Source: an uncultured Kofleriaceae bacterium (GTDB lineage Bacteria > Myxococcota_A > Polyangia > Haliangiales > Haliangiaceae). Taken from it: DNA of 64,000 nucleotides. The stretch covers positions 4,721 through 68,720 of the forward strand of contig CAYPIX010000005.1 in the NCBI GenBank assembly GCA_964410875.1, read 5' to 3'. Under the pieces are notes generated by a model. The model did no database searches and was not told the DNA's origin. It worked only from the letters and a program-made list of their open reading frames with translations. Numbering within the stretch: position 1 is the stretch's first letter; each line of letters starts with the position of its first letter. The translations under genes and the position numbers were made by a program. Positions 7,712 through 46,480 of this stretch are shown piece by piece.

Positions 7712-9007
7712 GTGTGGAATTTGCTTATTAGTATAGGCGTGCGAGTAGCGAAACCAGTGATTCTAGGATGCACCCTGGCAACCCTTTTCTTTGTGGTTGG
7801 TGAAAACAAGGCGGCAGCCCAGGTGGAAGTTGCAGTCCTCAACACACTCCCTGTTGCCGACGTTGTCAATTCAGCGCAAGAGCTCGTGGCCCAGTTAAAC
7901 GACGATACTTTTTTTGACTTCAACGCAACAGCTGTTGACGCAGATCAAATTGACACCCTTGAGGAGCTCGCCGAATTTGACGTGGTTGTCTTTGGCAGTA
8001 ACGGCGAAATCGGCAGCCTTGATGATGTCAACCTCGTGGGCGCGATAGCGTTACGAGATTGGGTTCGTGCTGGCGGTGGCGTCGTGGCTGCGGGTTGGAT
8101 TGACTTCGAGATCGGTGACGCTTTTCCAAGCACGCCCCGTGATATCGCCCTCGACGACGTAATCCCCATTGACGCCTCTGCTTTTCCTAATTTCAATTGC
8201 GGACTCGGCACAACTCTTTCGGTGTCGCCAACTCACCCGGTCACTGATGGCATCACCGAGTTGCCTGGCGGCGCTAATTTTGTCGAGTGGAGCCCAATTG
8301 TTGATGACCCCCAAGCCACCAGCCTGGCCGTACTTTCGAATCCAAACTGTGACGTGCCCGATGCAGCGCACAGCATTGTCGTGGGCCCCAATGGTAACGG
8401 GCGCAATGTCTTCCTCGGCTTTCTTTACGCAGGTGATACCCAGCGTTACGACACAGAAGCTCTTCGCTTTGGCGACGCAGACCGCCTTCTCGAGCAAGCC
8501 GTATATTGGGCTGGAACATCCGGAATTTCCGATCTTGACCAAGATGGTGTTCTCGATGACGACGATAATTGTCCCGTTGATGCCAACCCTTCTCAAACCG
8601 ACAACGACAACGACGGGCTTGGCGATGCCTGTGATCCGCCAGACAACGACGGTGATGGTGTAATCGACAGAGATGATAACTGCCCAGAAGTTCCCAACCC
8701 CGATCAATTCGACGACGATCAAGATGGGGAAGGCAATGCTTGCGAGCCCGAAGATAACGATTTTGACGGTGTCCCTAACGAATTCGACAACTGTCCAGAT
8801 GACGAAAACACTGACCAGAACGATGAAGACCAAGATGGTGTTGGCGATGCCTGCCAATTGCCGGAAGAGAGCAACGGCGGCGACACCGCGCTCTCGGCGC
8901 CAGGCGGATGCTCTAGCGCACCGAGTTCACAGTTTTTGTTTCCTTTGTTTTTTCTCATTGGATTTGTTCTTAGGAAACGCCGCGGCGACTCAAACGGACC
9001 TCTCTAA
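7712..9007 (+). CDS. Exported protein with thrombospondin type-3 Ca-binding repeats and a MYXO-CTERM-like tail
   Basis: 431-aa ORF with an N-terminal hydrophobic signal. It has six DxDxDG-type motifs, including DQDGVLDDDDNCP, DNDGLGDACDP and DGDGVIDRDDNCP. The C-terminus is GGCSSAPSS-hydrophobic-RKRR. Confidence 0.8.
   Translation: MWNLLISIGVRVAKPVILGCTLATLFFVVGENKAAAQVEVAVLNTLPVADVVNSAQELVAQLNDDTFFDFNATAVDADQIDTLEELAEFDVVVFGSNGEIGSLDDVNLVGAIALRDWVRAGGGVVAAGWIDFEIGDAFPSTPRDIALDDVIPIDASAFPNFNCGLGTTLSVSPTHPVTDGITELPGGANFVEWSPIVDDPQATSLAVLSNPNCDVPDAAHSIVVGPNGNGRNVFLGFLYAGDTQRYDTEALRFGDADRLLEQAVYWAGTSGISDLDQDGVLDDDDNCPVDANPSQTDNDNDGLGDACDPPDNDGDGVIDRDDNCPEVPNPDQFDDDQDGEGNACEPEDNDFDGVPNEFDNCPDDENTDQNDEDQDGVGDACQLPEESNGGDTALSAPGGCSSAPSSQFLFPLFFLIGFVLRKRRGDSNGPL
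8531..8857 (+). repeat. Coding tandem repeat: three long-plus-short pairs of thrombospondin type-3 motifs
   Basis: The periodic Asp-rich unit D-x-D-x-D-G-x-x-D-x-x-D-N-C-P alternates with D-x-D-x-D-G-x-G-(D/N)-A-C-(D/E/Q) in the translated frame. Confidence 0.8.
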
Positions 9008-9166
9008 GTTGACATCTTTGAAAGAGGTTCTCGGAAGAATGAGTGCCACTTATCTTAAGAGCCGACACAAAGAAGTAGGAAATTCGACTTTTCCTGCCGT
9101 TTGACGAGTAGGTAGCAGCCATGTCATCTCGACACCGATCCCTATGTTTTCTTATGATTCCTCCTC

Positions 9167-11509
9167 GTGGGGGTAACGGGAAAACGGCAAAAGCGGTTTG
9201 GGAGAGCGGTACGTACCCTGCTCTTTCTCTGCGCTCTTTTTCAGGCTGACGCTCACGCAGAATCCGAAGCCGAAGAAGAACCGCCGCCGACAAGGTTCGT
9301 TATTGATGTTCAGGCTCAAGACCAAAGTGACGCTTGGTTCGCACGGGCGATGTCTGACCGCATAGCTAAAGAAATTTCTGGTTATCAGAGAATCGTAACG
9401 TTTCCGACAAAGTCCTTCGCCTGCTCCCCCTGCTCGCCAACCGATTACCAAGAAGCGGGTATTGAGGTGGTTTTCCTCGGTGTTCTTCGAGACGAAGATA
9501 TCAACTTCGAAATAGTCGAGTTGTGGACTCCTGCAACGGTGTCCAACGGCTCCTTTTCCGTCGACAACGGTATGAGTCAGAGCAGGCTAAAGCGCAACAT
9601 ACTCGGCGCTTTCCAACCGGTATTAACCAAGGGCGGCCTTCTCGACGAGAAAGCGTTTCTTACTGGCACGGCTCTTGGTCCAACAGTGCCCACGTTGGGT
9701 AGCTCACTCCGTAAACACCCCCGTGGTTGGTCCGCAATATTTGGAGCTAGCTTCCTGCTATTCGCTATCGCCGCCCTAGCTATTGTGGCCTCGATTTCAG
9801 ACCGACGCGGGCATAACCTCCGCGCTGTTCGCGGATGGGTTCCCTCGATCTTTATCACGATTACAAGCGCAGCACTCGCCATAGCGTGCCTCGCCTTCAC
9901 CCCCGACCCTCTTGGTCCTGACACTCCGCGCGCCGAATCGTGGGTCTGGCTATCCGAGCTCTTTGGAGGGGTCGCTTGGGCTTGGCTTTTGATTACAGCC
10001 CTTCCTAGTCTGGTTCCCAGCTTGCGGGGATTTAATCGAGTGGGCCATCGAGACGTAGTCCGGCTTGTCCAAGCATGGTTTGCAGTCGTCGCTGAACGCA
10101 TCATCATTCGCGGCATTCTTTACTCTCCGTTCATTGCCATACTTGTCGCAGCCACCTGGTCGATGGATTTGTCCAACCGTCTTGCGCTATTGGTAGTGAC
10201 ACCCTTTTGGTTGCTTTTGGCAAGGTTCTGGTTTCTTGTCATCATCGAAGCCCTTGCTCTCATATTGGATACCGAATGGGTGTCCGGACGAGCGACCCGA
10301 GCGAATGTCTGGCACGATCGTATCACTGAATATATACAGGTATTCGCTAGAAGAACCGGATATTCCCTTCCGCCAGGGTTATTCGACAACGTTCTATTTC
10401 TTCCTGGTCAACGACGAGGTATCCACTCCTACGGCGGCGGACTTGCCAAAACGCGCATTGTAGTCGGAACTGGCTTACTCGAATTCGCGATGCGCGGTCC
10501 CCTTGAGGAAGCCGAGAACGAACATGTCTTTTCTTGGGCCGATTGGCAGGCCGGTCAGATCCAACCGGTTCCTGATGACGACCCCATACAGAGGGCACAG
10601 GGGTTGGGTGCCGACCTTCGAGCCCAAGTAGAACGTTTTGCTGGCCAAGCAAAATCCGCCTTCGACTCTCTATCAGAGAAAAGAAAGCGGCGGCGGGTAG
10701 ATGTTCGAGCTCGCGGGGTGAAACAGGGAATCGGACAAATAGCGACATTGCTGGGACAAGTCATGCCCTCCTCCGATGCTCTTCTACCCTTAGTTGCCGA
10801 TACGCCACGTGATATGGCCGTAATTCGAGAATTGCTAGCTGAGCATTACGATTTCGCCCTACTCGATCCCAATTCGGAATATGACGACGGCGACCCCACA
10901 GATCGAGATTTCCTCTTCGGACCTCTCCTTGTGGAGATTGGCCGTATTGGTCGACGGGAAGACAGACTTCTTACCCTTGGCTCAGCCATTAGCACCATGA
11001 AGTCGGTACCAGGCAAGTGGTATCGGAGCGTGGAGATTTTCTACAAACGTTGGCTGAGTCGCTACTCCGCGATGCTCGCCGATGCGTATGCCGCTCTCAA
11101 CCACGGGCGACACCACTTGGTTCAGTATCTTTATTGTTTTTCTGAGCGAGACCAGTCGCTTCTCAGTGTCCGCGCGCCAAGAGCTGACCTGAAAGCAATA
11201 TCCCGTTATATAACCGATGCAGTAAGCGAGCAGCCTCCGCGAACCGAGGAAATGGGAGCCACCCTTCATGCTCGGTTAATATGGCTGTCTTATTTTTCAC
11301 GAAAACAGCTTCGTGAACAGCGCGCCTACGTCGTTCGCAATATTTTGTACGCTCTCTTCGCAGGTGTGGCTGTGGGTGGATTCCTTGCCGCTACTTTAAG
11401 AGCAATCGACTATCATCCAGCCTACGTTCAAACCCTAGACGAGGAGCGCGCGGCAATCGCCGAAGAAAACGCCTCCATTAAAGAGAAAGAACCCACTGTC
11501 AATGAGTAA
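9167..11509 (+). CDS. Large polytopic membrane protein with a degenerate M48-peptidase-like region
   Basis: 780-aa ORF with a GTG start, a signal-like N-terminus, at least 5 central hydrophobic helices and a C-terminal helix. GIHSYGGGLAKTRIVVGTGLLEF and SAMLADAYAAL resemble M48 blocks, but no HExxH is present. Confidence 0.65.
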   Translation: MGVTGKRQKRFGRAVRTLLFLCALFQADAHAESEAEEEPPPTRFVIDVQAQDQSDAWFARAMSDRIAKEISGYQRIVTFPTKSFACSPCSPTDYQEAGIEVVFLGVLRDEDINFEIVELWTPATVSNGSFSVDNGMSQSRLKRNILGAFQPVLTKGGLLDEKAFLTGTALGPTVPTLGSSLRKHPRGWSAIFGASFLLFAIAALAIVASISDRRGHNLRAVRGWVPSIFITITSAALAIACLAFTPDPLGPDTPRAESWVWLSELFGGVAWAWLLITALPSLVPSLRGFNRVGHRDVVRLVQAWFAVVAERIIIRGILYSPFIAILVAATWSMDLSNRLALLVVTPFWLLLARFWFLVIIEALALILDTEWVSGRATRANVWHDRITEYIQVFARRTGYSLPPGLFDNVLFLPGQRRGIHSYGGGLAKTRIVVGTGLLEFAMRGPLEEAENEHVFSWADWQAGQIQPVPDDDPIQRAQGLGADLRAQVERFAGQAKSAFDSLSEKRKRRRVDVRARGVKQGIGQIATLLGQVMPSSDALLPLVADTPRDMAVIRELLAEHYDFALLDPNSEYDDGDPTDRDFLFGPLLVEIGRIGRREDRLLTLGSAISTMKSVPGKWYRSVEIFYKRWLSRYSAMLADAYAALNHGRHHLVQYLYCFSERDQSLLSVRAPRADLKAISRYITDAVSEQPPRTEEMGATLHARLIWLSYFSRKQLREQRAYVVRNILYALFAGVAVGGFLAATLRAIDYHPAYVQTLDEERAAIAEENASIKEKEPTVNE

Positions 11510-12317
11510 ACCAAACAAGAGCGATTCATCGCTTTTTTTCGCGACTGTGAGCCCTTCGTCCCTCGCCATCGACAAAGCGGCGGCTGGCGCGGGCGTAGCG
11601 GGTCTAGTCGGTTTTGCTGCTCTCTTCGCAGTGGCAACGTTATTCTTCGTCACCGAAAACTACTTTATCGCGATGCTCTTAGTCTCATTTGCGCTGCTCG
11701 TATATGTAACCGGCGCCGGTGTGAAAAAGCTAGCAGGCGCAACAGTGACACTCTTGTTTTCAAGTCGCCATGTAATTGCAAACGCAGCTTACATCCAGGA
11801 GACCCTTGTTCCGCTCAAAGAATTCTTGCGGGTAAAGCACAACGAGCGAGGCGACCTTCTCGTTGGCCCTATCAAACAAGGCTCTGTAGTTGAGCTACCC
11901 GACAACCCGCTCGCTCGAGACGTACAGGCCATCTTAGCGCGGGAAAAAGGTCATGAGTACATTGAGTACACCGCCCACGATTACTATGTCGAATGCCATG
12001 AGCTTTACGACTACTCTTTAGCCCACCTCGAATTTGTCGCTAGTGCCATGCCACTATTTGGACTAATCGGAACCATTGTCGGCCTCATCGGGATGTTCGA
12101 TAGCCTTGGCGCCGACGTTAGCGTTGAGTTTCTAACCCCTCAACTCGCGCTTGCACTCAAGACAACTCTTTACGGTGCCGTTTTTGCATCTTTCTACAAT
12201 ATTGTCGCATCGCGCTTCGACCAAAGACTGAAAGCCCTTGACTACGACTTCGATACATTCTGTCGAGCCCTTGAAGTTCTTGTCGAAAACGACGTGCGGG
12301 CGGAGCTCACGGAGTGA
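11502..12317 (+). CDS. MotA/TolQ/ExbB-family proton channel protein
   Basis: 271-aa ORF with four hydrophobic segments. MPLFGLIGTIVGLIGMF and LALALKTTLYGAVFASFYNI match the TM3/TM4 signature of the family. It overlaps the upstream gene by 8 nt. Confidence 0.85.
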   Translation: MSKPNKSDSSLFFATVSPSSLAIDKAAAGAGVAGLVGFAALFAVATLFFVTENYFIAMLLVSFALLVYVTGAGVKKLAGATVTLLFSSRHVIANAAYIQETLVPLKEFLRVKHNERGDLLVGPIKQGSVVELPDNPLARDVQAILAREKGHEYIEYTAHDYYVECHELYDYSLAHLEFVASAMPLFGLIGTIVGLIGMFDSLGADVSVEFLTPQLALALKTTLYGAVFASFYNIVASRFDQRLKALDYDFDTFCRALEVLVENDVRAELTE

Positions 12318-12913
12318 AACACTTCAGCAAGATGGCGCGAAAACGCCGCAAATCTGATACCTGGCAGGTCATCTACATGGATCTCATGACCATCATCATG
12401 GTCTTTTTCGTAATCCTTTGGTCTTTAAATCAAGGAAAAGATGTAGGCATCAGCGAGACTGTAGGTGACCAAACCCTGCGAATGATCACACTGCCAGGGG
12501 ACGTACTTTTTAACTCCGGCAAGTCACAACTAAGTGCAGATGGCGGACAGGTTTTCCGCAAGTTGTTTGAGGCTGACGCCGATCAAATTCTCGATTTTGA
12601 GACAGGTGGACTAACCAACCGACTTTTGGTTATTCATGGACACACAGACGGCGTAGGAAAGAAAGACGAAAACTTCGGACTTGGTTACCGCCGAGCGTTC
12701 CAGGTCTATAAAGAAATTGAAAAATACGGAGCACAGGTCCCGGACCATGTGGTCCTCTGCAGTCACTCCGACAACTCGCAAGTACAGGCGGTCCCCACTT
12801 TTCAGGGCAACGTCACTCCGGCGCAAAAAGCTCTGGTTCGAGAAGCGAATGCAAAAAACCGCCGCATTACGATAGAAGACAAGATCGTTAACATTGGCGA
12901 AGAGGAGAACTAA
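12314..12913 (+). CDS. MotB-type stator subunit with an OmpA-like peptidoglycan-binding domain
   Basis: 199-aa ORF. YMDLMTIIMVFFVILW is a MotB TM helix with the conserved Asp. The C-terminal motifs are IHGHTDGVG, NFGLGYRRAFQV and NRRITIE. It overlaps the upstream gene by 4 nt. Confidence 0.85.
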   Translation: MKHFSKMARKRRKSDTWQVIYMDLMTIIMVFFVILWSLNQGKDVGISETVGDQTLRMITLPGDVLFNSGKSQLSADGGQVFRKLFEADADQILDFETGGLTNRLLVIHGHTDGVGKKDENFGLGYRRAFQVYKEIEKYGAQVPDHVVLCSHSDNSQVQAVPTFQGNVTPAQKALVREANAKNRRITIEDKIVNIGEEEN

Positions 12914-12916
12914 CAA

Positions 12917-14563
12917 GTGGTAGGAGCTCAATCGCTCTTGACCATCTCGGTCGCGACTCTAGCTCTGCTTACGACTTGGTGGGCCGGTCGCTTTGACCCA
13001 AGCTATCTGATGCGACTCGATCCAACGGTTACTTTCCTAGCCGGCCTTATTTCCACACTTGCTGGCGTGTTCTTTTTTCGGTTCTGGTCCGTAGCTCAAG
13101 GAAGCGACACCTATTTTCGGGTGACGGCAACCGAGGACCAAAAAACAGACGAGGTTCCCCTACTTTCTAGAAACGACAGGCACGTCGTTGTTGGGAATGT
13201 TTCGGACTACCCGCCATGGGAACTTCCTCCCCTGCTCCATCGACTCGCTTATGTAGGGGTCTTCCTCTGTCTTTCGCTATTGTCCTTCGACAACCGAACC
13301 GCGGACCTTTTGCACGCTGCACCAGATCGTCTAGACCCAGCAGTTACCCAGTACTGCGCCGACCCCAATGAGGAAGAACAAATCGTTCAGGATGATCCGG
13401 GATGTAAACTTATCCAACGCGCGTTCGAACTTGGGTACACCAAAGACCTCGGAGATTGCGCACCAAAGGTAAAGAAACAGGGTGCCAACGGCGTTTGTAC
13501 TTTGAGACGAAAAGACGAACCATACCTGCATTACACTTGGCGTTTGCTTCGTGGCAAAGACTTGATCGACGAGGAAGAAAACGAAGAAAACATCGTTTCC
13601 CGCCTGATGAGTCGTTTACGACTTCAGTGGGAATACGTTCCCACCCTCGCCTCTCTTCAATGGACGGCAGTCGCTGCCCGGCCCCGTTCGTCTCACCACA
13701 TTTGGACCAACCTTCCACCACCCGAACGGGGTTTCTTTTTCAAAGTCTCGCGCTTCTTTCATCCGCGTGGCTGTCTCGACGCTTCCTCTCAACCCCAAGA
13801 AACTCTCGGCGATCCGACATGGCGCGCAAACTCCAGTGAGCTTCTCGCCCACGCAATCGCGCAGCTTGTTTACACCCCACAGTACAAACCATCGGTGGGT
13901 TTTTGCCCCGAGTACCACGTGCATTGGGATACAGCGTCCAACTTTTGCACCAAGCTTCTTCGAGCTCCTGAGGACATGTTGTCCTCGTCTGACCTAGAGT
14001 TAATAGAAGGTGTTTTGGCGCGCCAGCAAAATGACACCGGCGTCTCCGAGCTAGGAAAGGCACTTAAAGACGCAAACGCTCTCCAGTCTCGGAGCGACAT
14101 TGCCAGAAGCCGAGAAAGCGAAGCACGTCCGGCATCTTCCAAGCAGAGCATCGTCAGTTTTCAGTGTTTTTTTGTTGTTGAGAACGGCAACAGTGAGGTT
14201 ACTACCCGTGACTTCACTCTGAACGGCACGACGTTCTCTGCACGAGAAGTCCGTATCCCAAGGACTGCGACACCGCCGGAAGTGTACAAAAACGTAGCGA
14301 CCCTACTAGCGCCCGGTTTCCGTTATGGCCAACTTTTAAGCGACGAAGCCGCGGAGGCCGACATGATAGATCAGCGACAACTTACTCAGTCCGACTATCC
14401 CCTTGCCCAACTGGAGGTTCTCCGCGACGCGGATGTCTTCGTTGGCAACGAGTGGCTCCAAGAACAAACGAATCTTCTATCGGTCTACCCCGCCCATCAA
14501 CACTTGGAAAACCTGGTGACACTATTTAGAAGGCAATATGCGGTCCAGCGGGGGCGTTTGTGA
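12917..14563 (+). CDS. Membrane-anchored Cys-containing protein, unknown family
   Basis: 548-aa ORF starting 3 nt after the motB-like stop. Three hydrophobic segments lie in the first ~130 aa, followed by a long soluble region. I recognised no motif. Confidence 0.6.
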   Translation: MVGAQSLLTISVATLALLTTWWAGRFDPSYLMRLDPTVTFLAGLISTLAGVFFFRFWSVAQGSDTYFRVTATEDQKTDEVPLLSRNDRHVVVGNVSDYPPWELPPLLHRLAYVGVFLCLSLLSFDNRTADLLHAAPDRLDPAVTQYCADPNEEEQIVQDDPGCKLIQRAFELGYTKDLGDCAPKVKKQGANGVCTLRRKDEPYLHYTWRLLRGKDLIDEEENEENIVSRLMSRLRLQWEYVPTLASLQWTAVAARPRSSHHIWTNLPPPERGFFFKVSRFFHPRGCLDASSQPQETLGDPTWRANSSELLAHAIAQLVYTPQYKPSVGFCPEYHVHWDTASNFCTKLLRAPEDMLSSSDLELIEGVLARQQNDTGVSELGKALKDANALQSRSDIARSRESEARPASSKQSIVSFQCFFVVENGNSEVTTRDFTLNGTTFSAREVRIPRTATPPEVYKNVATLLAPGFRYGQLLSDEAAEADMIDQRQLTQSDYPLAQLEVLRDADVFVGNEWLQEQTNLLSVYPAHQHLENLVTLFRRQYAVQRGRL

Positions 14564-15153
14564 AACATCTCCTTATGTTCACCGCCGCATTTTTCGTCGT
14601 CTACGTTGGCGCCGCCAATGCGCAAGACAGTACCGATTCGGAGTACACAGTTGAAAAACGCATAGACACCATTTCCAAAGGGTTAGCTGCTGTGAAGCAA
14701 CTCGACCCAAATACCCAGAACAATCTCATAAGCTACATCCACAACATGGCGAAGACCGCATGCCGCGGAAATTCAGCCAGTCTACAAGCGAACTGTCTTA
14801 TCGAAGCGGGACGTCGAAACTGCCGACAAATGAGAAAAACCTTAACCGACGGAGCATGTAACCTGGCAACCGATGTCATTATCGTCAACCGACTCAGCGA
14901 ATCGCAATTTCTATCTTCGCGTGAAAAGTATCGCGTCGCTCGGAAAGCGAAGAAGGCGAGAATCGCAATAGAAAACGCTATCCGTTTGCGTCACGCGACT
15001 CTTGTCACCGAATTCCGTCTTTCGCCGTTTTTCTCGTCCGGGGAGATAGCCGAGAAAATTGATAATTTTTGCCAAGATGGCGCGAAAAACCGTGGCATTT
15101 CGTGGCAACACTGCACGGCAGCACTTGTCTGGTTCATTGGAACATCATCATGA
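14560..15153 (+). CDS. Secreted protein, unknown family
   Basis: 197-aa ORF with signal peptide MKHLLMFTAAFFVVYVGAANAQ. It has 4-nt overlaps with both neighbours. Confidence 0.6.
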   Translation: MKHLLMFTAAFFVVYVGAANAQDSTDSEYTVEKRIDTISKGLAAVKQLDPNTQNNLISYIHNMAKTACRGNSASLQANCLIEAGRRNCRQMRKTLTDGACNLATDVIIVNRLSESQFLSSREKYRVARKAKKARIAIENAIRLRHATLVTEFRLSPFFSSGEIAEKIDNFCQDGAKNRGISWQHCTAALVWFIGTSS

Positions 15154-16334
15154 CTCACGCACTAATCGAACTTCTTTCCCGCGAATCTCGCAAACTCGAG
15201 CAGGCAGGCCTTAGCAAGAAAGAGCGCTTGGTAGAAACTGACTCCTGGCGAGATGGCGGATCTGAAATGGTCCACGTGATCGATTTTACCAGTGACGACT
15301 ACCTTGGGCTTCAGGGACTCAAGGCTATTCATGACTCCGCGTCTGCTGCTCTTGATCTCTATGGGCCCGGCGTTTTCTCAACCAGAATGCAATCGGGCAC
15401 GCGAAGCATTCACAGAGAGTTAGAAAAAGAAGTGGCCACTTTTCTAGGTATGCCAGCGGCATTGGTATACACGAGCCGCTACCAAGCCTGTCTGGGCCTT
15501 TTCGAACCGCTTTTTGACCAACGTGATTATATTTTTTGCGACGCAGTGGTTCACCCCAGCATCGCCGATGGGGCACGCCTCTCCGGCGCGCGCGTGCATT
15601 CGTTTGCAAACCACGACCTGGACGACCTTGAAGATAAACTGAAGCGATCGCGAGGCGCTCGTTTCCGAGCTATCGTGACGGACGGCGTCTCCCCTCTAGA
15701 CGGAGTCGTCGCGAATCTCCCTGGAATTTGCCGATTAGCCGAAACCTATGACGCCTTGACCATCGTCGATGATTCAATGGGGCTAGGCGTCTTGGGAACC
15801 ACCGGGCGCGGTACAGCCGAACACCATGGGGTCACAAATAGAGTGGATATTTTGATCGGGAGCTTTGAAGCGGCACTTGGTGGAAGCACGGGTGGTTTCA
15901 TTTCTGCCCATCACGATATCGTCGACTGGTTACGGCAAAAATCCATCCCCTATATTTTCTCTGGTGCAATGCCGCCGCCAGCAGCTGGTAGCGCGAAGGG
16001 AGTCCTGAAACTCCTCGAACGGGACCAACAGCCCTTGGAAGACCTTCGTAAAAGACAAATGCAACTCCGTTCCGCTCTCGCAAACCTCGGCTATAGAGTT
16101 TACGGCGGCGAACATCCTCTTCTAGCTGTGGATGTAATGGAATCCATCACCCTCCAAAAAATGATCAACCAACTCTTTGATCTGGGAATTTTTGCCTACG
16201 GTCTTTGCTATCCAGTTGTGCCCGAAGGGGAAGCACGGATCCGCTTCCAGGTTTCTGCCAACCACACAGAAGCCCAGCTTGAACAAACCATCACTGCTCT
16301 CGAATCTGTGGGCCGCGATCTATCCGTGATTTAG
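15150..16334 (+). CDS. Alpha-oxoamine synthase fold protein (KBL/AONS/CqsA-like) lacking the PLP lysine; probable pseudoenzyme
   Basis: ATG 15150 forms an ATGA overlap with the upstream stop. Family blocks are FTSDDYLGL, HPSIADGARL, TIVDDSMGLG and DILIGSFEAALGGSTGGF. The canonical DD(S/A)H His is Met, and the G(T/S)xxK Lys is Ala. Confidence 0.8.
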   Translation: MTHALIELLSRESRKLEQAGLSKKERLVETDSWRDGGSEMVHVIDFTSDDYLGLQGLKAIHDSASAALDLYGPGVFSTRMQSGTRSIHRELEKEVATFLGMPAALVYTSRYQACLGLFEPLFDQRDYIFCDAVVHPSIADGARLSGARVHSFANHDLDDLEDKLKRSRGARFRAIVTDGVSPLDGVVANLPGICRLAETYDALTIVDDSMGLGVLGTTGRGTAEHHGVTNRVDILIGSFEAALGGSTGGFISAHHDIVDWLRQKSIPYIFSGAMPPPAAGSAKGVLKLLERDQQPLEDLRKRQMQLRSALANLGYRVYGGEHPLLAVDVMESITLQKMINQLFDLGIFAYGLCYPVVPEGEARIRFQVSANHTEAQLEQTITALESVGRDLSVI

Positions 16335-24915: not shown

Positions 24916-25093
24916 TCGGTTCGTTTACCCGCCTAGCCGCGCCTTGCCAACCGATATCCATGGCCTTGGCTAGCCCGCCCGCGCCAAAGGTAAAGGTGCG
25001 CAAAGGTCTGATTTGTCCCGATCTAATTACCATTCACTTTAGCAATCGGTAACAATCCGCACACACGTGGTGGCCGCTGGTTTTGGGGGTTCG

Positions 25094-27523
25094 ATGCTGC
25101 GTTTGTTGGAAATCGTGCGAATACAAACCACAATTTACGCAATCGTCGGCGCGCTCATCGCTACCCAAGGGTTACCTCTTGCCCTAGCACAAGATTCGAA
25201 TTTTTTCTTAACCACTCCGGGCCCATTATCTAGTGAGCACGCAAAGTGGGACAACGAAGCCGGCTGCGATTCCTGCCACAGTGGCAAGTCGACTTCGAAT
25301 GCGAAGTGCTTAGGCTGTCACGAACATAAAGACCTGAAAAAAAGAATCGACTCGGGCAAGGGCTACCATTCCATAGCCAAGGTCAAAAAGAAGAACTGCG
25401 CAGTGTGTCACAACGAACACAAAGGGCGTAAGTACAACATCATGGGTTGGGGGTCAGTTCCCGGGGGAGAGCAAGGGTTCAACCACAGCCTTGCAGGCTG
25501 GGATAAAAAGGGAAAACACACCGTTCTTGCATGCAACGCATGTCACAAGAAAACCAACAAAGCGGGTCGTCGAATTTATCTTGGCGCAGACAAGGTTTGC
25601 GGGAATTGTCACAAAGACGACCAGCGCCATGGTTTCCAGCGTGCTTCCATGATGGTTTGCGAAAAATGCCATAGCGAAATCGCGTGGAAGCCAAGCCGAA
25701 AGAAGCTCGACTTCAATCACAACTCCGCGGCTGACGCAGACTTTCCCCAAGAAGGCGCGCACCAAGATGTCTCCTGTGGGAAGTGTCACCCAAAAACCAA
25801 ATTCAATTTAGGCTTCAAAGACCCAAACGAATGTCGCAACTGTCACAAGAGCTCGCACCAAGATCATCTATTTGATACCAAGGCCTGTACGTGGTGCCAC
25901 TCACCGAAGTTGAGCTCTTTTAGAAAACACAATTTCAAACACGAGGAGAAAACTCGCTTTGGCCTGAACGGTAAGCACGCAACTGCCCAATGTTACGACT
26001 GTCACACTTCTCGCTTGAAGAGCAAAAAACCAAGCAGGAGTTGTGCAAGTTGCCACGCGAATGACAATCCACACAGGGACCGTTTCAAGCAATTTGGAGA
26101 ACCGCCCAAGTGCCGCGTTTGCCACACGACCTCCAGTTTCTCCCCCAATCAATTTAGGGGCAACCATGGAGCTTCCACCGGTTTCCAACTCGAGGGTAAA
26201 CATAGAAAAATTACTTGTCGAAGCTGTCACCGCGGACGGAAGCCTTATGAATTTGAACCGCTCGAAGTGACAAAGAAAGGTACGTTGTGCATGAGCTGCC
26301 ATGCGCATAAGAACGTCCATAGCGGTGAGTTCACAGATGTTTCGGACATCGCTCTACGGCCCAAAACGCCCGAAGGACAAGCGAAACGATACTGCCTTGA
26401 ATGCCATAAAAACCCGGGGGCTCTCGATGTTCCGATTAGTGAAATCCCCCAGCACCAAGCCACTGGCAGCTTCCCCCTGGTTGGAGAGCACGCCAAAGTC
26501 GCATGCGATGGGTGTCACACCAATAGTGAGTTTAGAGGTACACCCAAGGAATGTGGAACAAGATGCCACCAGGACACGTTGCATAAAGGCAGCCTGGGTA
26601 AAGAGTGCTCTCGTTGCCATTCCCCAGGTGTCGCCAAATTCGCGAGCGACAGATTCGATCACAACGAAGACACAAAATTTCCTTTGCGAGGCGCGCACCA
26701 AGAGCTGCCCAAGTGTGTAGATTGCCACCCGAACCGGAAGTACGCAGAGACGCCATCAAATTGTTCGGCGGGGCAGTGTCATGCAAAGGACGATGCCCAC
26801 CAGGGTGCGTTAGGTACAACCTGCGAGAACTGTCACTCGGAGACCGAAGAGATTGTCTTTGACCACAACAAACAATCGGAGTTTGAGCTCGATGGAGCCC
26901 ATAGAACCACTGAATGCAGCAAGTGCCACTCCAGTATTACCTTTAAACCCACTCCCAAGACTTGCTATGGCGGTGGAGCTTGTCACCCAGAGCCCGACGC
27001 ACATAAAGGAGAGTATGGCGTTCTCTGCGAGGACTGTCACAACACAACATCCTTCACCCAAATAGAACCGCTACACAACGTGGGTGCTTTCTCTTTGACC
27101 GGCTCACACGATCGCATTTCCTGCGTAAGCTGTCACAAGAACAACCGCCTCTTAAAAGGAAGCGGCAACATGTGCATCAATTGTCATCGCCAAGACGACG
27201 TGCACTCGAACTCACTATCTCCGCAATGTGGTGATTGCCACAATCAATGGAGTTTTGCGCCAGCTAGATTTACTCACCTAACCGTGGGCTGCAACTTGGA
27301 AGGCCTGCACCGCACCCTACCCTGCCGAGACTGCCATAAGGGAGGAAACTTCGGCGCGCTTTCGCCTACGTGTTTCGGTTGCCACGCGGATACAGCGTTG
27401 CGAAAGGGAGTTAGCGGTACCGATCACACTGGGTTCATGACTTGTGCTGAGTGCCATAGTACAAATACCTGGCTACCAGGAATAGTTGGCGTTGGCTTTG
27501 GTAGGGAGTCCATATGCCGATGA
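25094..27523 (+). CDS. Periplasmic multihaem c-type cytochrome, ten triplets of haem-binding motifs
   Basis: ATG 25094 follows a GGGGG SD inside ORF 25067-27523. The signal peptide ends in ALAQD. I count 27 CXXCH plus CGTRCH, CSAGQCH and CYGGGACH. The recurring module is F-x-H...G-x-H...CXXCH. Confidence 0.9.
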   Translation: MLRLLEIVRIQTTIYAIVGALIATQGLPLALAQDSNFFLTTPGPLSSEHAKWDNEAGCDSCHSGKSTSNAKCLGCHEHKDLKKRIDSGKGYHSIAKVKKKNCAVCHNEHKGRKYNIMGWGSVPGGEQGFNHSLAGWDKKGKHTVLACNACHKKTNKAGRRIYLGADKVCGNCHKDDQRHGFQRASMMVCEKCHSEIAWKPSRKKLDFNHNSAADADFPQEGAHQDVSCGKCHPKTKFNLGFKDPNECRNCHKSSHQDHLFDTKACTWCHSPKLSSFRKHNFKHEEKTRFGLNGKHATAQCYDCHTSRLKSKKPSRSCASCHANDNPHRDRFKQFGEPPKCRVCHTTSSFSPNQFRGNHGASTGFQLEGKHRKITCRSCHRGRKPYEFEPLEVTKKGTLCMSCHAHKNVHSGEFTDVSDIALRPKTPEGQAKRYCLECHKNPGALDVPISEIPQHQATGSFPLVGEHAKVACDGCHTNSEFRGTPKECGTRCHQDTLHKGSLGKECSRCHSPGVAKFASDRFDHNEDTKFPLRGAHQELPKCVDCHPNRKYAETPSNCSAGQCHAKDDAHQGALGTTCENCHSETEEIVFDHNKQSEFELDGAHRTTECSKCHSSITFKPTPKTCYGGGACHPEPDAHKGEYGVLCEDCHNTTSFTQIEPLHNVGAFSLTGSHDRISCVSCHKNNRLLKGSGNMCINCHRQDDVHSNSLSPQCGDCHNQWSFAPARFTHLTVGCNLEGLHRTLPCRDCHKGGNFGALSPTCFGCHADTALRKGVSGTDHTGFMTCAECHSTNTWLPGIVGVGFGRESICR

Positions 27524-29178
27524 CCGCACTACGCATATCGGCAGTGGCATTCTGCTTATGTTCCTCTGTGCTTTCCCACGCCGAAGAAAAACGTTCACAG
27601 CGCAATTCGCGATTCTTTTTTGACGAACCCGAGGCCGATGAAGTCTTAACCCAAACAGGCTTTGACGGCAGCCTCGTTTTGACGACCTTATATTTCTCTG
27701 AGTCCTCTCAACCTTTCGATCTGGGAGGAGGGACGCCTGGGCAAAATGCAAGTGGCGTCACACGGTTCTTCACTGACTTAAGAGCCCGCCTGGATGTCGA
27801 GCACATAAAGGGAGGCCGCTGGCATCTGCGGACTGACATTCGAGGTCGGTTAACCCCCGGGGCTTGTCGTACGCAAAGCCGTAGTTCACTCGATGCTTGC
27901 ACGCGGTTTCAGTCGGGTTCTCTATCGGGGAATGAGATCGACTTTAACCAATTCTATTTCACACGCTCCAACGCTGGTTCAACGTGGAGTATTGGCCGTC
28001 AATTTGTGAGCGAGCTCACCTACACAAAGGTCGACGGAATCCGGTATGACCACAAGCTTACAGACAAATGGAAAGCTATCGGTTTCGCGGGTCTATACCC
28101 CGCACTCATTTCCCGGGATATCCGCTCCGATTACCCAGTACTCAACGATGCGTCCACCAGAACCCGCAGACGATCCTTGCCCGTCACGGGTGGCGGTGGT
28201 GTCGCGTACGAGTATGGCAACTACTTCGGCTCGTTTGGCGGAACGGTTATAGCTCCATTGACGAAAGAATTGGGACAGCTTGGCAACGGCGCAGGCGGCA
28301 CTGGCAGAATCGAAAAATTTCGCGTTTTCGCCAACGCTCAAGGGCACGCCAAATTACTTTCAAATTTAGATGTTCATCACTCCGCAATATTTGATGTCCG
28401 AGGCCCAAGTGGCCCCGGATTTACTAACCTCGGTCTCGGTCTTCACTTTCGCCCCTTTAGCGGTTTCCGAACCTACCTACAAGCCACCAGAGTGAGTACT
28501 GACATTCTAAATGTCAATGCGCAGTCTCAGCTCGAGACCCCAGGTAACCAGACCAACGTGGTGCAAAACAATGTAGCAGTACGACGGATTTCTCAAGAGT
28601 CAGCGCGTCTTGGGGCAACGGTTTCCGCGTTTGAGAACCGCTTTGAGCTCTCATCCATAGTCACAGCTCGAAGACGGCCCCGTATCACTCTCATATCTAA
28701 CGCTGGGAACCCTATTGAATTTGGAGCAGCCAAGGCAGTTGAAGTCACCGTTCATGCGGTAGACAAATACTCCTTCGCGGGACTGCGAATTGGGGGTTAC
28801 CTGACTCACTCCCTAGGTATAGGCAAGAACAATCTGAACCGAGGTAGTTACACCTCCGTAGGTGTAGACGCTCGCCGCTCCTTCCTACACGGGAAGGCTG
28901 AGTTTGACGGTTCAGTAACGTACCTTATCTCCACGGACGAAACGCGTTCTCAGTTATGCGACCCACAGAATATTGAAACTTGTTACGGCTCCGCCGCAAC
29001 GTCCTTGCTAGGGCTGACAGCAAATGGCTTCTATCGGTTTTCCGACAGTTGGTTTGTTCTGGGCGGCCTAAACCTGGCAACGCAGGCCAGCAATTCAATC
29101 AATATAGAAGGACAGCGTCGGCGCGCGCCTTCTATATTGATGACAACGTTCTTTAGCCGTCTCGCCTACCGGTTCTAG
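27514..29178 (+). CDS. Outer-membrane beta-barrel protein (porin-like), coupled to the cytochrome gene
   Basis: 554-aa ORF with a signal peptide ending SHAEE and many alternating strands. The C-terminus RLAYRF is a typical OMP terminal Phe. Its start overlaps the cytochrome stop. Confidence 0.7.
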   Translation: MPMTALRISAVAFCLCSSVLSHAEEKRSQRNSRFFFDEPEADEVLTQTGFDGSLVLTTLYFSESSQPFDLGGGTPGQNASGVTRFFTDLRARLDVEHIKGGRWHLRTDIRGRLTPGACRTQSRSSLDACTRFQSGSLSGNEIDFNQFYFTRSNAGSTWSIGRQFVSELTYTKVDGIRYDHKLTDKWKAIGFAGLYPALISRDIRSDYPVLNDASTRTRRRSLPVTGGGGVAYEYGNYFGSFGGTVIAPLTKELGQLGNGAGGTGRIEKFRVFANAQGHAKLLSNLDVHHSAIFDVRGPSGPGFTNLGLGLHFRPFSGFRTYLQATRVSTDILNVNAQSQLETPGNQTNVVQNNVAVRRISQESARLGATVSAFENRFELSSIVTARRRPRITLISNAGNPIEFGAAKAVEVTVHAVDKYSFAGLRIGGYLTHSLGIGKNNLNRGSYTSVGVDARRSFLHGKAEFDGSVTYLISTDETRSQLCDPQNIETCYGSAATSLLGLTANGFYRFSDSWFVLGGLNLATQASNSINIEGQRRRAPSILMTTFFSRLAYRF

Positions 29179-29473
29179 CGCGCATTAAGCAACAACCTAC
29201 CTCTGTGTCATCATGCGACACGCAGAGCATACTGAGAATTTTCCAAGTGTCTGCTCGCCTGAGACAAAGACATACCTATCGCGCTTCATCGCATAAAGGA
29301 ATACTGTGCGCCGGGTGTGAGCCTCCCAATGTCTACAAAAGACCTCAGGTCCTTTGTCCTCTTATTTCGTATTGAATCTTACCTATGTTACCGAGTAAAC
29401 TAGTAGGTCTAGAGTTTGCTTTGTAGAGTTGCCAGCGTTCGCTTTTGAACGCATCTTTTTGGGGGGGAAGACT

Positions 29474-30274
29474 GTGCGGAAATATATTTTTGCGTTGGTG
29501 GTATTAGCTGGGTGTGTCGGGGGAGACGAAGGCGACACAATTTCTTTTGATAGGCCGTCGATTTCTGAAGGGGCAATCGCACTGTACGATTTTGCGCCGC
29601 TTGACGGAGATATTCAGAATCGCATTGTCCCCGACCTAACCGAGAACGGAAACGATTTGTTCTTTGGAGGCGAATTTGACGTGGACGCCGAATGGGTTTT
29701 GGATGAAGAGGACCCGCTTGACAACGGAATTGCTTTTCTCGACAGGACCAGACTTCGAAGCGTAAGAAATATGACCAACATGACAGAAGCTTGCAACGAC
29801 ACAAGCTCTGTTACTATCGACGTAGTCGCGACCTCAGTTGGCGACCTGTCTGCTGGTACATTTGTTGAGTTTGCCAACCAGGAAGGCCGCGGTTTCAGGG
29901 TTAGGCACAATGGAACTCTTATTGAGGCCCTGGTTTCACATGGCGATGAAATAAATGGAAGCCCGCAATTTGCCTCCAATTCAGACATCTATGGTCTAGT
30001 ACGCAACCATATAGTAGTCCGCTCTGCACTGGGAGGAGCTGACGTTCACGTCGACCTCGATCGTGGCGAAACGCCTCGGCCAGGAAGCGATGGCCCTATG
30101 AATTGGGACAACGAGTTCGAACTCTACGTAGGCAACACCTTTAGCAACAATGACTCACTCGACCTTGGTACCACACTCCATCGGCTAGCGATTTATTGCG
30201 GCGAGCTTACAGACGAACAGCTCAGAGCAAATGCCGCTTCTGCGGGATTAGAAATCCCCGCAGAAGAAGAGTAA
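29474..30274 (+). CDS. Lipoprotein with a LamG/concanavalin-like C-terminal signature
   Basis: GTG 29474 follows a GGGGGGGAAG SD. The lipobox is VVLAGC. The C-terminal LHRLAIYCGELTDEQL resembles the LamG-domain end motif. Confidence 0.55.
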   Translation: MRKYIFALVVLAGCVGGDEGDTISFDRPSISEGAIALYDFAPLDGDIQNRIVPDLTENGNDLFFGGEFDVDAEWVLDEEDPLDNGIAFLDRTRLRSVRNMTNMTEACNDTSSVTIDVVATSVGDLSAGTFVEFANQEGRGFRVRHNGTLIEALVSHGDEINGSPQFASNSDIYGLVRNHIVVRSALGGADVHVDLDRGETPRPGSDGPMNWDNEFELYVGNTFSNNDSLDLGTTLHRLAIYCGELTDEQLRANAASAGLEIPAEEE

Positions 30275-30311
30275 TCAAAAGGTATTTTTTCCAATAACAA
30301 GAGGTCGAATT

Positions 30312-32144
30312 TTGAAAACAATCTTAGTAATAGCCGTAATTTCTGGCTCGGTGTTTCTCCCGAGCCTCGCGACTGCACAAACACGAACCGTTACATACAC
30401 CCAGCTTCGCAATGGTGATTACGCTGGAGAAGTTCAACGACTAGAGCCTCTGTCTTCTGGGCGAGTGCAAGCACAGGAACAGGTAGGGGCCGGTGGAGAA
30501 CATGCATCGACCGCCGTTTCCGGTCCTTTTGTTACGACCGCCGTTATTTCTTCCTACATGCGCGATGAAGACGGAGATGGCACTCCTGAAGTGCCAATGC
30601 CGGACATTATTCAGCTGGAAGGTTTTTTCGGTAGACTGTCAGCGACAGGAAGCATTGAACCCATTGAGGAATGCCCTCAGGGTCTAAAAGGCTTGGTTCT
30701 CACAAACAACTCGGGCGATCGATATCGAAACGGCCATGCTCCCAGAGTACTCACTCTAGGCGTCGCCGATGGCAAAGATGCCTCTGATCCTAGGCAACAT
30801 CTCTTTCGTATCAAGTACAACTATGCACCTGCGGATGAGGACGAAGAATCCAATGCACGCGCACGTTCGTATTCGAAGATTGTGAACGCCTGTGGTGAAG
30901 TGTTGTCCGTTGAACAAGAAGACGGACAGCTAGCAAGTCTCATCATCGCTAAAGAAAACGATGACTGCTCTGAGCACGACATGAAGCCCGAATTTCTCCA
31001 CAAAGACTACATCGACGGTGAATCTGGCGAGCGAGTACTAAACGTATTTGGTGTCTATGGCTGCAATGGCAATGGAAGAGACGACGGTTGGGCCAGCTAT
31101 GATGAAACTCGCTGCACATTTAGCGAAGAAGGAATTCCGAGTTCTTGTACAGGTGGGCAGCTCAGTGATGTTTCAATTATTACGCAAGAGCAACGCTCCC
31201 GAATGCTTGTAGAAGAGACCTCTGATCCCAACTTGATGGTCTATGTAGGGGTGGAGGGAAACACAAATCCACCCAATCAAGGTGTTGAGGTTGGCCTCGT
31301 ACGCATTGGTGAGGGAGGCGTTCTTGAGCAGGTATTTGAAGCGTATTACGCACGTTCGAGCCCTGGCAACGATCTCTATGAAACTGAGCCGCGCGGCTAT
31401 GGTTTAGTGGATGAGAACGGCGTCCCTACTGGCGTAATTCACATTACCAACACTCAAATCCACCGCGTCGATAACCGTACTAAAGGCGAAGCGAGGATGC
31501 TCGCTGGGCGAGTGCAAGTCGACGTTGAAGAGCAGACTATTTCCATTCTCAATCAACGGCAGTCGGTACATGATGTCATGCCCGGGCTTGAAGCCACCCA
31601 TGTCGGCGAGTGCGCCGTAGACAATGCTGGTCTCATCCTCAGCAGTTCCCATTCAGGTAATCACGAGAACCCGATGGTTGGCTTCTTGTATAACTGGACG
31701 CTGAACGACGATGTTCAACAGGCGAACCTAACGAACCTTGGTCAAACAAACCTAGTGGCGGCCCATGATAACCGATACATATCGAACATATTGGGCAACA
31801 ACCCGCGGAACCAAGGGAAGAACTTCCTTGGTTGCAAGGAAGTACCTAATCCATATTTCAATGTCGATGACGCGGATAACAAATGCGCAAAGACGTTAGT
31901 CGTGATGGGTGTTAACCCTCGTGAGGTTCGCGAGGGGACAAATATTCCATTCGACAAGCTAAGCACTGGGATTGTTGTTACTTCAGGTGTAATCGACGGC
32001 GATTGTGCTGGTACGGCCGGTGGAAACACGGGCGGAAGCGGCTCCGGTGGAGGTTGCTCAACCGGCCAAAACAGCTCAGCGGTTGGCCTATTGGCCTTCC
32101 TTGGGCTGATTGCTTGGCGTAGACGTCGGAATGAAGCAGTTTAG
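30312..32144 (+). CDS. Large exported protein with a MYXO-CTERM-like tail, unknown family
   Basis: 610-aa ORF with a TTG start after AAGAGG. The signal peptide ends in ATAQ. The C-terminus is GGGCSTGQNSSAVGLLAFLGLIAWRRRR. Confidence 0.7.
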   Translation: MKTILVIAVISGSVFLPSLATAQTRTVTYTQLRNGDYAGEVQRLEPLSSGRVQAQEQVGAGGEHASTAVSGPFVTTAVISSYMRDEDGDGTPEVPMPDIIQLEGFFGRLSATGSIEPIEECPQGLKGLVLTNNSGDRYRNGHAPRVLTLGVADGKDASDPRQHLFRIKYNYAPADEDEESNARARSYSKIVNACGEVLSVEQEDGQLASLIIAKENDDCSEHDMKPEFLHKDYIDGESGERVLNVFGVYGCNGNGRDDGWASYDETRCTFSEEGIPSSCTGGQLSDVSIITQEQRSRMLVEETSDPNLMVYVGVEGNTNPPNQGVEVGLVRIGEGGVLEQVFEAYYARSSPGNDLYETEPRGYGLVDENGVPTGVIHITNTQIHRVDNRTKGEARMLAGRVQVDVEEQTISILNQRQSVHDVMPGLEATHVGECAVDNAGLILSSSHSGNHENPMVGFLYNWTLNDDVQQANLTNLGQTNLVAAHDNRYISNILGNNPRNQGKNFLGCKEVPNPYFNVDDADNKCAKTLVVMGVNPREVREGTNIPFDKLSTGIVVTSGVIDGDCAGTAGGNTGGSGSGGGCSTGQNSSAVGLLAFLGLIAWRRRRNEAV

Positions 32145-45317: not shown

Positions 45318-46478
45318 ATGGAAAGAACTCTCTCTCTCTGGGGCGTGGCTATTTTGGCCGCGTCTTGCGGCGGTGAAACCAGCACACCCTTACCCCCCAA
45401 CACCGGCGACGCACTTGCGACCTACGCCAGTATTGCAGCGGCAAACTACGAGGATTCCGTCACCGCAGCAAGGACCCTCGATCAAGCGGTTAACGCATTT
45501 ATCGCCACGCCTTCCTCGCTATCCCAGCAGGTAGCTCAAAGTGCATGGCTAGATTCCCGAGAGCCCTACCTAGAGACTGAAGTCTTCCGCTTCTATGACG
45601 GACCTATAGACAACCCGGCCAACGGTCCAGAAGGACTTATCAACGCATGGCCTCTTGATGAAGCATATATTGACTACGTCGCCGGAAACAACGGAGCCGG
45701 GATTATCAATGATGGGACGACGTCCATCGATATTGATACGTTGGTCAATCTAAATGAAAATGGCGGCGAAGAAAATATCGCGACCGGTTTTCACGCAATT
45801 GAATTTCTTCTTTGGGGGCAAGATCAAAATACTGCCGGTCCTGGTCAGAGACCAGCAACAGACTATAGTGTCGTAGGAGGGACCGCATCAAACCAAGCCA
45901 GACGAGCCCAATACCTAGCAACGGTATCAACTCTTCTTGTGGCAAACCTTCAATCGGTATCCGAGGAATGGTCAAATAACGGCGCCTACCGAGCGACATG
46001 GAGCACTATAGGCGATGAGGAAGGACTCCGACGCGTCCTGACGGGCATGATCATTCTCTCCGGTTTTGAAACTGGTGGCGAAAGACTGCAAACCGCTCTG
46101 GATTCAGGAGATCAAGAAGACGAGCATTCTTGCTTCAGTGACAATACCCACCGCGACATGATCCAAGATATTCAGGGCGTTCTCAATGTTTGGGACGGAA
46201 ACTACCTGCGTCTCGACGGCTCTCCAATAGCCGGTACCGGCATCGGTGATGTGGTTCGCGCAGCCGACCCAGCGCTAGCAGACACTCTCGACGCTCAAAT
46301 AGCTGTAAGCCTTGCCGCAGCTAACGCCTTAGTACCTCCATTCGATAACGAGATTGCTCCGGGCAATACGGAGGGCCGAGCACGGGTTCAATCTTTGATT
46401 GACGCTCTTCGTGCTCAAGAGCGTTCGCTTCAAGAGGTCTTTCGTCTCTTCGACCTTTCGATCCCTTCGCCGGAATAA
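45318..46478 (+). CDS. Imelysin-family lipoprotein (IrpA/peptidase M75-like)
   Basis: 386-aa ORF with lipobox LAASC and the imelysin signature GFHAIEFLLWGQD. Confidence 0.8.
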   Translation: MERTLSLWGVAILAASCGGETSTPLPPNTGDALATYASIAAANYEDSVTAARTLDQAVNAFIATPSSLSQQVAQSAWLDSREPYLETEVFRFYDGPIDNPANGPEGLINAWPLDEAYIDYVAGNNGAGIINDGTTSIDIDTLVNLNENGGEENIATGFHAIEFLLWGQDQNTAGPGQRPATDYSVVGGTASNQARRAQYLATVSTLLVANLQSVSEEWSNNGAYRATWSTIGDEEGLRRVLTGMIILSGFETGGERLQTALDSGDQEDEHSCFSDNTHRDMIQDIQGVLNVWDGNYLRLDGSPIAGTGIGDVVRAADPALADTLDAQIAVSLAAANALVPPFDNEIAPGNTEGRARVQSLIDALRAQERSLQEVFRLFDLSIPSPE

Positions 46479-46480
46479 GT

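Follow-up and report, generated by a model that had tools for sequence, protein, structure and literature searches.

A six-gene cassette around a MotAB-type stator, found in Kofleriaceae and other bacteria, is probably an undescribed membrane machine

The known machines that contain a motor of five A and two B subunits (5:2 motors) are the flagellar stator, Ton, Tol, Agl-Glt, GldLM/PorLM and Zorya. The Tol-Pal operon, for example, reads ybgC-tolQ-tolR-tolA-tolB-pal-cpoB, within which the order tolQ-tolR-tolA-tolB stands for motor subunit A, motor subunit B, an anchored protein and a periplasmic protein. Recent surveys indicate that non-flagellar relatives of MotAB and new partner sets of 5:2 motors are still to be discovered (PMC12505986; PMC12204202). 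Here we describe a cassette of six genes, g1 to g6, with a MotAB-type stator encoded by g2 and g3. It occupies positions 9167-16334 of a stretch of 64,000 nucleotides (hereafter the window) from an uncultured Kofleriaceae bacterium (assembly GCA_964410875.1, contig CAYPIX010000005.1, positions 4,721 to 68,720 of the forward strand). Because four phyla share the gene set and its order, the cassette is probably an undescribed membrane machine, and we found no published account of it in the open-access literature.

All six open reading frames (ORFs) lie on the forward strand and follow one another almost without interruption. The first gene, g1 (9167-11509, 780 aa), overlaps g2 (11502-12317, 271 aa) by 8 nt, and g2 overlaps g3 (12314-12913, 199 aa) by 4 nt. 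A gap of 3 nt precedes g4 (12917-14563, 548 aa), which overlaps g5 (14560-15153, 197 aa) by 4 nt, and g5 is joined by an ATGA overlap to g6 (15150-16334, 394 aa), the last gene of the cassette. An earlier note on this DNA, made from the letters of the window, had read the six genes as one coupled unit; the ORFs and the junction lengths (-8, -4, +3, -4 and -4 nt) were identical when we derived them again. Moreover, the junctions are tight in every lineage, with medians across loci of -15.5, -4, +1, -4 and -4 nt. Hydropathy, together with structure models for g1 and g4, distributes the products over the cytoplasm, the inner membrane and the periplasm.

Homologues of g4 are present in 36 of 185,579 species-representative genomes, and tblastn searches with the window proteins located g1 to g6 in the same order and on the same strand at 29 other loci. 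The remaining loci are truncated by contig ends or lack g6 only, and independent gene calls, including those for locus L043, show the same layout. The genomes with g4 belong to Myxococcota (Kofleriaceae, Haliangiales and Polyangiales), Bdellovibrionota (Oligoflexus and Bdellovibrionaceae), Gammaproteobacteria (Pseudohongiella and Ectothiorhodospiraceae among them, with Teredinibacter sp. ISS155 and Pleionea sediminis as cultured members) and Nitrospirota. Six-gene loci occur in the first three of these phyla, and a Nitrospirota locus from one metagenome-assembled genome has g1 to g5. Because 29 additional loci preserve order and strand although their g1, g4 and g5 proteins share only 22-36% identity, the arrangement is not due to chance. 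The outer neighbours, g0 and g7, are not conserved across loci, and the flanks are heterogeneous, with genes for a TadA-like deaminase, KatG, TetR, GGDEF, GNAT, FecR, MepA, subtilase and other proteins. Conservation of gene order beyond close relatives, on which the earlier note had made its reading depend, is therefore observed in all four groups and between unrelated flanks. In three loci (L018, L025 and L026) g6 is missing within 10 kb, and in L011 it does not follow g5 in the 447 nt left before the contig end; because g6 is lacking at these four loci, we consider g1 to g5 to be the obligatory core.

A neighbour-joining tree based on g2, g3 and g4 recovers the Gammaproteobacteria as a monophyletic group nested among 'delta'-type lineages, and it separates two very divergent clades within the Kofleriaceae (L032, L036, L039 and L040 versus L008, L014 and L034). 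These sequences suggest that the cassette has long resided in Myxococcota and Bdellovibrionota and that some transfer or paralogy has occurred, and the topology suggests its transfer to marine Gammaproteobacteria and to Nitrospirota. The two Kofleriaceae clades hint at either an ancient paralogy or the movement of a whole cassette within the phylum. We found no sign of mobile carriage, in that g4 is absent from the viral contigs of IMG/VR and from the plasmids of PLSDB.

The stator pair shares the main features of MotAB and PomAB. Like other A subunits of this type, g2 (Pfam PF01618 MotA_ExbB, E = 9e-17) has four transmembrane (TM) helices, two of them N-terminal and followed by a large cytoplasmic TM2-TM3 loop of ~100 residues, and then TM3 and TM4. 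The TM3 proline (Pro184) and the TM4 signature TxYG (T222-L-Y-G225) are at least 90% conserved in alignments of 36-39 orthologues, and the nearest relative in the PDB is MotA (8gqy, 1.1e-08), with TolQ and PomA next. The B subunit, g3 (Pfam MotB_plug, 6.5e-08; OmpA, 1.6e-06), likewise combines a channel Asp with an OmpA-type peptidoglycan-binding domain. Asp23, within the YMDLMT of the TM helix, is invariant in 39 orthologues, the peptidoglycan-binding signature HGHTD..G.K..N..LG..RA is at least 90% conserved across orthologues, and the domain matches OmpA C-terminal domains in the PDB. Because the channel Asp, the TM3/TM4 residues and the OmpA motif are all conserved across orthologues, the stator looks functional in every lineage, and the same judgement made earlier for the window stands. 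By analogy with the solved 5:2 complexes to which they are homologous, g2 and g3 would be expected to assemble as A5:B2 and to be driven in rotation by protons.

Nevertheless, judged by their scores, g2 and g3 fall outside every curated stator family against which they were compared (MotA, PomA, MotP, TolQ, ExbB and ZorA2). With NCBIfam equivalog models of the flagellar type, g2 reaches only 17-36 bits against cut-offs of 304-394 (MotP, 36.3 versus 394; PomA, 30.6 versus 341; MotA1, 17.1 versus 303.8). The corresponding values are 32.2 versus 221 (TIGR02796) and 27.2 versus 403 for TolQ, 21.9 versus 135.35 for ExbB and 13 versus 700 for ZorA2, and no Pfam or NCBIfam model for TolR, ExbD or TonB was matched by the cassette proteins. 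By the TolQ and ExbB scores, the pair is not a canonical TolQR or ExbBD, a placement that the earlier note would have counted against its reading. Flagellar B subunits (the FIT group) carry a plug helix and a long linker (PMC12505986). In g3, the MotB_plug match covers only profile positions 13-41, which is mainly the TM helix, and the OmpA-like domain starts ~18 residues past this helix; g3 thus has neither a flagellar-type plug nor the long linker. PADLOC models of ZorB match g3 at 1e-14, and this match is limited to the OmpA-like domain. A further difference concerns the cytoplasmic loop of g2, which bears conserved hydrophobic motifs (LPDNPL and AHxYYxxCxELY); for E. coli MotA, the literature describes an R90/E98 pair that contacts FliG. 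Finally, the conserved cassette neighbours of the stator are non-flagellar, and no flagellar, Ton or Tol genes were detected among the subset of window ORFs that was scanned or in the flanks and gene calls examined at a subset of the loci.

The cassette also resembles Tol-Pal. In both cases the A and B motor genes are followed by a gene for an inner-membrane-anchored protein whose periplasmic portion is large, and next by one for a secreted periplasmic protein. Both also include a cytoplasmic protein with the fold of an acyl-CoA enzyme (YbgC in Tol, g6 here), a fold like that of the TolB N-domain (here in g1) and a peptidoglycan-binding OmpA-like domain (Pal in Tol, g3 here). However, g2 has four TM helices, as in MotA, rather than the three of TolQ, and the OmpA-like domain forms part of the B subunit instead of residing on an outer-membrane lipoprotein. 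The stator pair stays below the TolQ/TolR equivalog cut-offs, and the sequences of g1, g4 and g5 show no relationship to Tol proteins. Searches with Pfam and NCBIfam, together with the g4 alignment, revealed no TolA/TonB C-terminal domain, SHLS motif, beta-propeller, Pal or CpoB.

The product of g1 belongs to no Pfam, NCBIfam or PADLOC family and has no sequence-profile match in the PDB. Hydropathy and an AlphaFold2 model based on a 47-sequence alignment (pLDDT 80, pTM 0.68) outline a signal peptide, a periplasmic alpha/beta domain with two conserved Cys (residues ~40-165; nt ~9284-9661, forward strand), a block of five TM helices (residues 190-367), a cytoplasmic domain of ~350 residues and a sixth TM segment. 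The cytoplasmic domain contains invariant D368, R396, R430, D581 and D639 and an acidic motif, DDxDPTDxDFLFG, and the final long helix (residues 721-774) spans the membrane, reaches the periplasm and carries a conserved YHPxY. As modelled, the N-terminal domain has a TolB-N/PelC/LpoB-like fold: Foldseek aligned it with TolB (2.2e-04), PelC (2.4e-03) and LpoB (1.4e-02) from the PDB at probability 1.0, and two of 18 family members gave weak Pfam matches to TolB_N. The remainder of the protein has no structural relative in the PDB or BFVD according to Foldseek. Likewise, when every member of the g1, g4 and g5 alignments was scanned against Pfam at E values up to 5, no consistent family appeared. 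One stretch of the cytoplasmic domain, 'FLPG..YGGG..RIVI ... DFLFGALLHELG', looked at first like a degenerate M48/M56 (HtpX/BlaR1) protease, an idea that we dropped for want of a PDB sequence-profile match or of any Foldseek match beyond the N-domain.

The g1 family comprises 279 representatives among 1.84 billion cluster representatives in an exhaustive HMMER search. HMMER was needed to see this family, as word-index searches with a single sequence or with an 18-sequence profile gave one relative. Nine homologues are over-long (861-1489 aa) and were inspected as potential 'Rosetta stone' fusions; their extensions contain no Pfam domain. In locus L042 (1956-6425), a 1489-aa protein is distantly related to the TM/cytoplasmic module of g1 and has no adjacent MotA/MotB, its neighbours being a ParE/helix-turn-helix (HTH) toxin-antitoxin pair and an SBP_bac_3 gene. 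Hence, the g1 module exists also outside the cassette.

At its N-terminus, the g4 protein has three TM helices, the second and third of which are separated by a small beta module; a periplasmic domain of ~420 residues follows. Public gene callers start g4 at 13010, 31 codons later (517 aa), and give g5 a length of 192 aa, but the GTG at 12917 is likely to be the true start of g4, because TM1 is conserved in homologues and the longer frame restores the 3-nt junction. Alignment of homologues reveals eight invariant Cys in the periplasmic domain, together with an invariant His/Glu cluster (DEPYLHY, PRSSHHIWTN and CxEYxIHW), with E201, H205, H260, H261, E332 and H336 among the invariant positions. 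The product of g5 carries a signal peptide and would be secreted as a protein of ~175 residues with six invariant Cys. The invariant Cys of both proteins therefore fit periplasmic disulfides, and the Cys, His and Glu pattern of g4 is what one would expect of a disulfide-bonded domain that may also have a metal site. At the very C-terminus of g4, residues 537-548 read F-R-x-x-Y-x-x-x-x-(G)-R-L-stop ('RGRL') and are invariant in 18 homologues. Such invariance at ~30% overall identity suggests that the tail is a docking peptide for a partner.

Neither protein could be linked to a described family. For g4, there is no Pfam, NCBIfam or PADLOC family and no PDB match by sequence or by Foldseek comparison of the fold; its AlphaFold2 model (pLDDT 68) is confident in the membrane module and partly of low confidence in the periplasmic part. 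For g5, there is no consistent match in Pfam or the PDB and no relative of known function, and we rejected the notion that it is a relative of g4 because hhalign finds the two unrelated. The earlier note had left the partners unassigned, and matches to TonB, TolA, Pal or Zor families are indeed absent from Pfam, NCBIfam, PADLOC, PDB profiles and Foldseek. General scans turned up no Glt-like domains either, although no search aimed at Glt references was made.

In contrast to g1, g4 and g5, the origin of g6 is readily recognized. It matches Pfam Aminotran_1_2 (9e-38), scores 385.6 bits with the NCBIfam model for glycine C-acetyltransferase (under the cut-off of 460) and shows full-length fold homology to KBL structures in the PDB (3tqx, 1.2e-90; 1fc4, 5.6e-89). 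In the window protein, the Schiff-base Lys (K244 of E. coli KBL) is replaced by Ala and His213 by Met. Among 32 orthologues, the Lys position is occupied by K (14), Y (9) or, in the rest, by H, N, D, A or M, the His213 position is Leu in 23, and Asp210 and the phosphate-binding Ser/Thr are mostly kept. The term 'KBL-fold pseudoenzyme' used in the earlier note is therefore apt for the window and fits the family only in part, given that 14 of 32 orthologues keep the Lys while losing His213. Since none of the 32 has both residues, the sequences characterize the family as a non-catalytic, or at best crippled, cytoplasmic protein of the pyridoxal phosphate (PLP)-enzyme fold that derives from KBL. 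A comparable case is eukaryotic LCB1/SPTLC1, a non-catalytic subunit that acts as a structural partner. Like such alpha-oxoamine-synthase subunits, g6 has the KBL/AONS/SPT fold without the PLP Lys and/or the catalytic His. Unlike LCB1, it is nearest to KBL and not to SPT, no active paralogue lies beside it, and its presumed partner is the motor complex.

At 13 loci, the window not among them, one or two cytoplasmic proteins flank the cassette. One type consists of a VWA domain with a C-terminal domain resembling the C-terminal domain of ribosomal protein L7/L12 (L7/L12-CTD), and the other joins an ABC1 atypical-kinase domain to the same L7/L12-CTD-like domain. Some loci carry both, and some of the genes are translationally coupled to g1 or g6. 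Accessory ORFs were recorded on the reverse strand at L012:3572-6417, L008:3516-6316, L001:6768-9590 and L016:7274-8821, and also at L022:13397-14974, L021:4557-6473 and L038:13743-15392. That two different accessories share one small domain suggests that both may dock at a common place on the machine's cytoplasmic side. To our knowledge, neither the combination of VWA or ABC1 with the L7/L12-CTD-like domain nor its association with a MotAB cassette has been described. A related precedent is the set of vWA 'force transducers' next to TolQ-like motors described by Williams-Jones et al. (2025, PMC12204202), which are TM-anchored and periplasmic and make use of either a trans-pore helix or an SHLS motif. 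The two cases are alike in that recently recognised, uncharacterised partner sets of 5:2 motors are involved and that VWA proteins lie near some of our cassettes. However, the VWA proteins described here are optional, have no TM helix or signal peptide and carry the L7/L12-CTD-like domain.

With slightly better than even confidence, we propose that the six genes encode one dedicated machine of the inner membrane and periplasm, built around a proton-driven MotA5:MotB2-type motor, for which envelope remodelling or maintenance is the likeliest output. In such a machine, a g3 dimer would be anchored to peptidoglycan by its OmpA-like domain, and proton flow via Asp23 would rotate a g2 pentamer about this dimer. 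The TM helices of g4, of g1 or of both would dock at the rim of the g2 ring, much as TonB and TolA do on ExbB and TolQ. Rotation would then be converted into mechanical work on the periplasmic parts, that is, on the Cys-rich and probably metal-binding domain of g4 with g5, and on the N-domain of g1. Facing the cytoplasm, the conserved hydrophobic motifs of the g2 loop could provide a stable contact for the cytoplasmic domain of g1, for a g6 dimer or for both, and these would serve as regulator, gate or ligand sensor of the motor. In about one-third of loci, VWA or ABC1-kinase proteins would be recruited via the L7/L12-CTD-like domain. The output would be remodelling or maintenance of peptidoglycan or of the outer membrane. 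This envelope role was guessed because the gene order mirrors tolQRAB and because g1 bears a TolB-N-like fold. That the cassette defines a further, undescribed family of 5:2 motors powered by the proton-motive force, with a MotAB-type stator, a g4/g5 transducer and cytoplasmic gating by g1 and the KBL pseudoenzyme, is a tentative proposal to which we give a little less than an even chance.

Two further observations favour a dedicated envelope machine, namely that the fold of the g1 N-domain is one used by the envelope machines TolB, PelC and LpoB, and that g6 has retained its fold while its active site has decayed in every orthologue. Other observations count against it. Contact of the stator with g1, g4, g5 or g6 is something that we infer. 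TonB and TolA bind their motors through an SHLS/His motif, and the homologue alignment reveals no conserved His and no SHLS motif in the TM helices of g4. The low confidence of the g4 periplasmic model, the short linker of g3, which makes it questionable that the OmpA-like domain reaches peptidoglycan unaided, and the lack of an outer-membrane component encoded in the cassette also weigh on this side, and the assignment of an output is a guess.

Alternatively, the cassette might be a sensory or regulatory device, in which a stator-like gated ion channel or mechanosensor is read by the pseudoenzyme, the kinase and the VWA protein, with g1 as the receptor. We regard this as unlikely, and it overlaps with the motor model proposed above. 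The layout of g1 is receptor-like, with a TM bundle between its periplasmic domain and its large cytoplasmic domain, and g6 retains residues of the ligand pocket and not those of catalysis. Moreover, ABC1-kinase and VWA accessories are found at the 13 loci, and several loci have GGDEF/EAL or Ser/Thr kinase genes nearby. However, the cassette itself contains no recognizable HTH, histidine kinase or GGDEF output domain, most loci, including the window, lack the accessories, and the residues of the proton path and of the peptidoglycan anchor are fully conserved, which fits a working motor.

The main alternative in kind, a role in anti-phage defence or another conflict, is in our estimate quite improbable. 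Such a system would resemble Zorya, with a peptidoglycan-anchored MotAB-like unit that senses perturbation of the envelope and signals to the cytoplasmic domain of g1, to the KBL-like protein and to the accessories. The similarities to Zorya are a non-flagellar MotAB-like unit, a B subunit that binds peptidoglycan, dedicated non-motor partners and a patchy distribution. The rarity of the cassette (36 of 185,579 species over four phyla), the two divergent clades inside Kofleriaceae, an integrase or transposase near some loci and the ParE/HTH pair near the distant g1 relative are all in keeping with this possibility. The VWA and kinase accessories are as well, since proteins of these kinds are common in conflict systems. 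The match of g3 to ZorB models, however, is confined to the generic OmpA-like domain, and g1, g2, g4, g5 and g6 have no match to ZorA, ZorC, ZorD, ZorE or any other PADLOC model. With its 271 aa, g2 lacks the long tail of ZorA. The cassette contains no effector of the nuclease or NTPase type, and its partners are mostly membrane or periplasmic proteins, whereas those of Zorya are cytoplasmic effectors that target DNA. Two Cys-rich periplasmic proteins would be atypical of a defence system, the flanks hold housekeeping genes and not defence islands, and the cassette is absent from the viral contigs and plasmids searched. Finally, the pair might be nothing more than a redundant stator of the flagellar, Tol or Ton kind that happens to sit beside unrelated genes. 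Membership of g2 in the MotA/ExbB superfamily and of g3 in the MotB/OmpA superfamily would be in line with this reading, as would the flagellar MotA found as the best match in the PDB, but it is close to refuted by the synteny of the cassette over four phyla (g1 to g5 in Nitrospirota) at low identity, by scores far under every equivalog cut-off and by the lack of flagellar, Ton or Tol genes among the ORFs and loci examined.

Several other features of the window deserve mention. A sigma-70-like promoter match (TCGACA-18-TATGAT, 10 of 12 positions) lies just 5' of g1 at 9129-9158 on the forward strand, and it is no more than a candidate, since shuffling the region yields no fewer such sites. An Rfam scan of the whole window gave no match and hence no riboswitch leader. 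Upstream, g0 (7712-9007), which is outside the conserved cassette, encodes a thrombospondin type-3 repeat protein with weak NCBIfam matches, far under cut-off, to models of MYXO-CTERM-anchored proteins (MtsC-like), a hint of a Myxococcota-type host. At 25067-27523 there is a gene for an 818-aa multihaem cytochrome with c7/c3 and MtrC/MtrF-like domains, after which come several ORFs without a Pfam family (27514-32144), and the region 25067-32144 may be an extracellular electron-transfer cluster. A gene trio at 45318-48897 encodes imelysin, a di-haem oxidoreductase (DHOR) and a second imelysin, an arrangement characteristic of periplasmic iron-uptake clusters.

Every set of partners known for a 5:2 proton motor, whether the flagellar rotor, TonB, TolA-Pal, Glt, GldM/PorM or ZorCD, has opened new envelope biology. 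In the cassette described here, a flagellar-type stator with a peptidoglycan anchor is joined to a novel, conserved partner set and to a repurposed PLP-enzyme fold. It also offers a clean case in which the fold of a metabolic enzyme has been co-opted, without catalysis, as a machine part. Moreover, because the cultured bacteria Pleionea sediminis and Teredinibacter sp. ISS155 carry the cassette, one can test directly which other processes are powered by MotAB-type motors.

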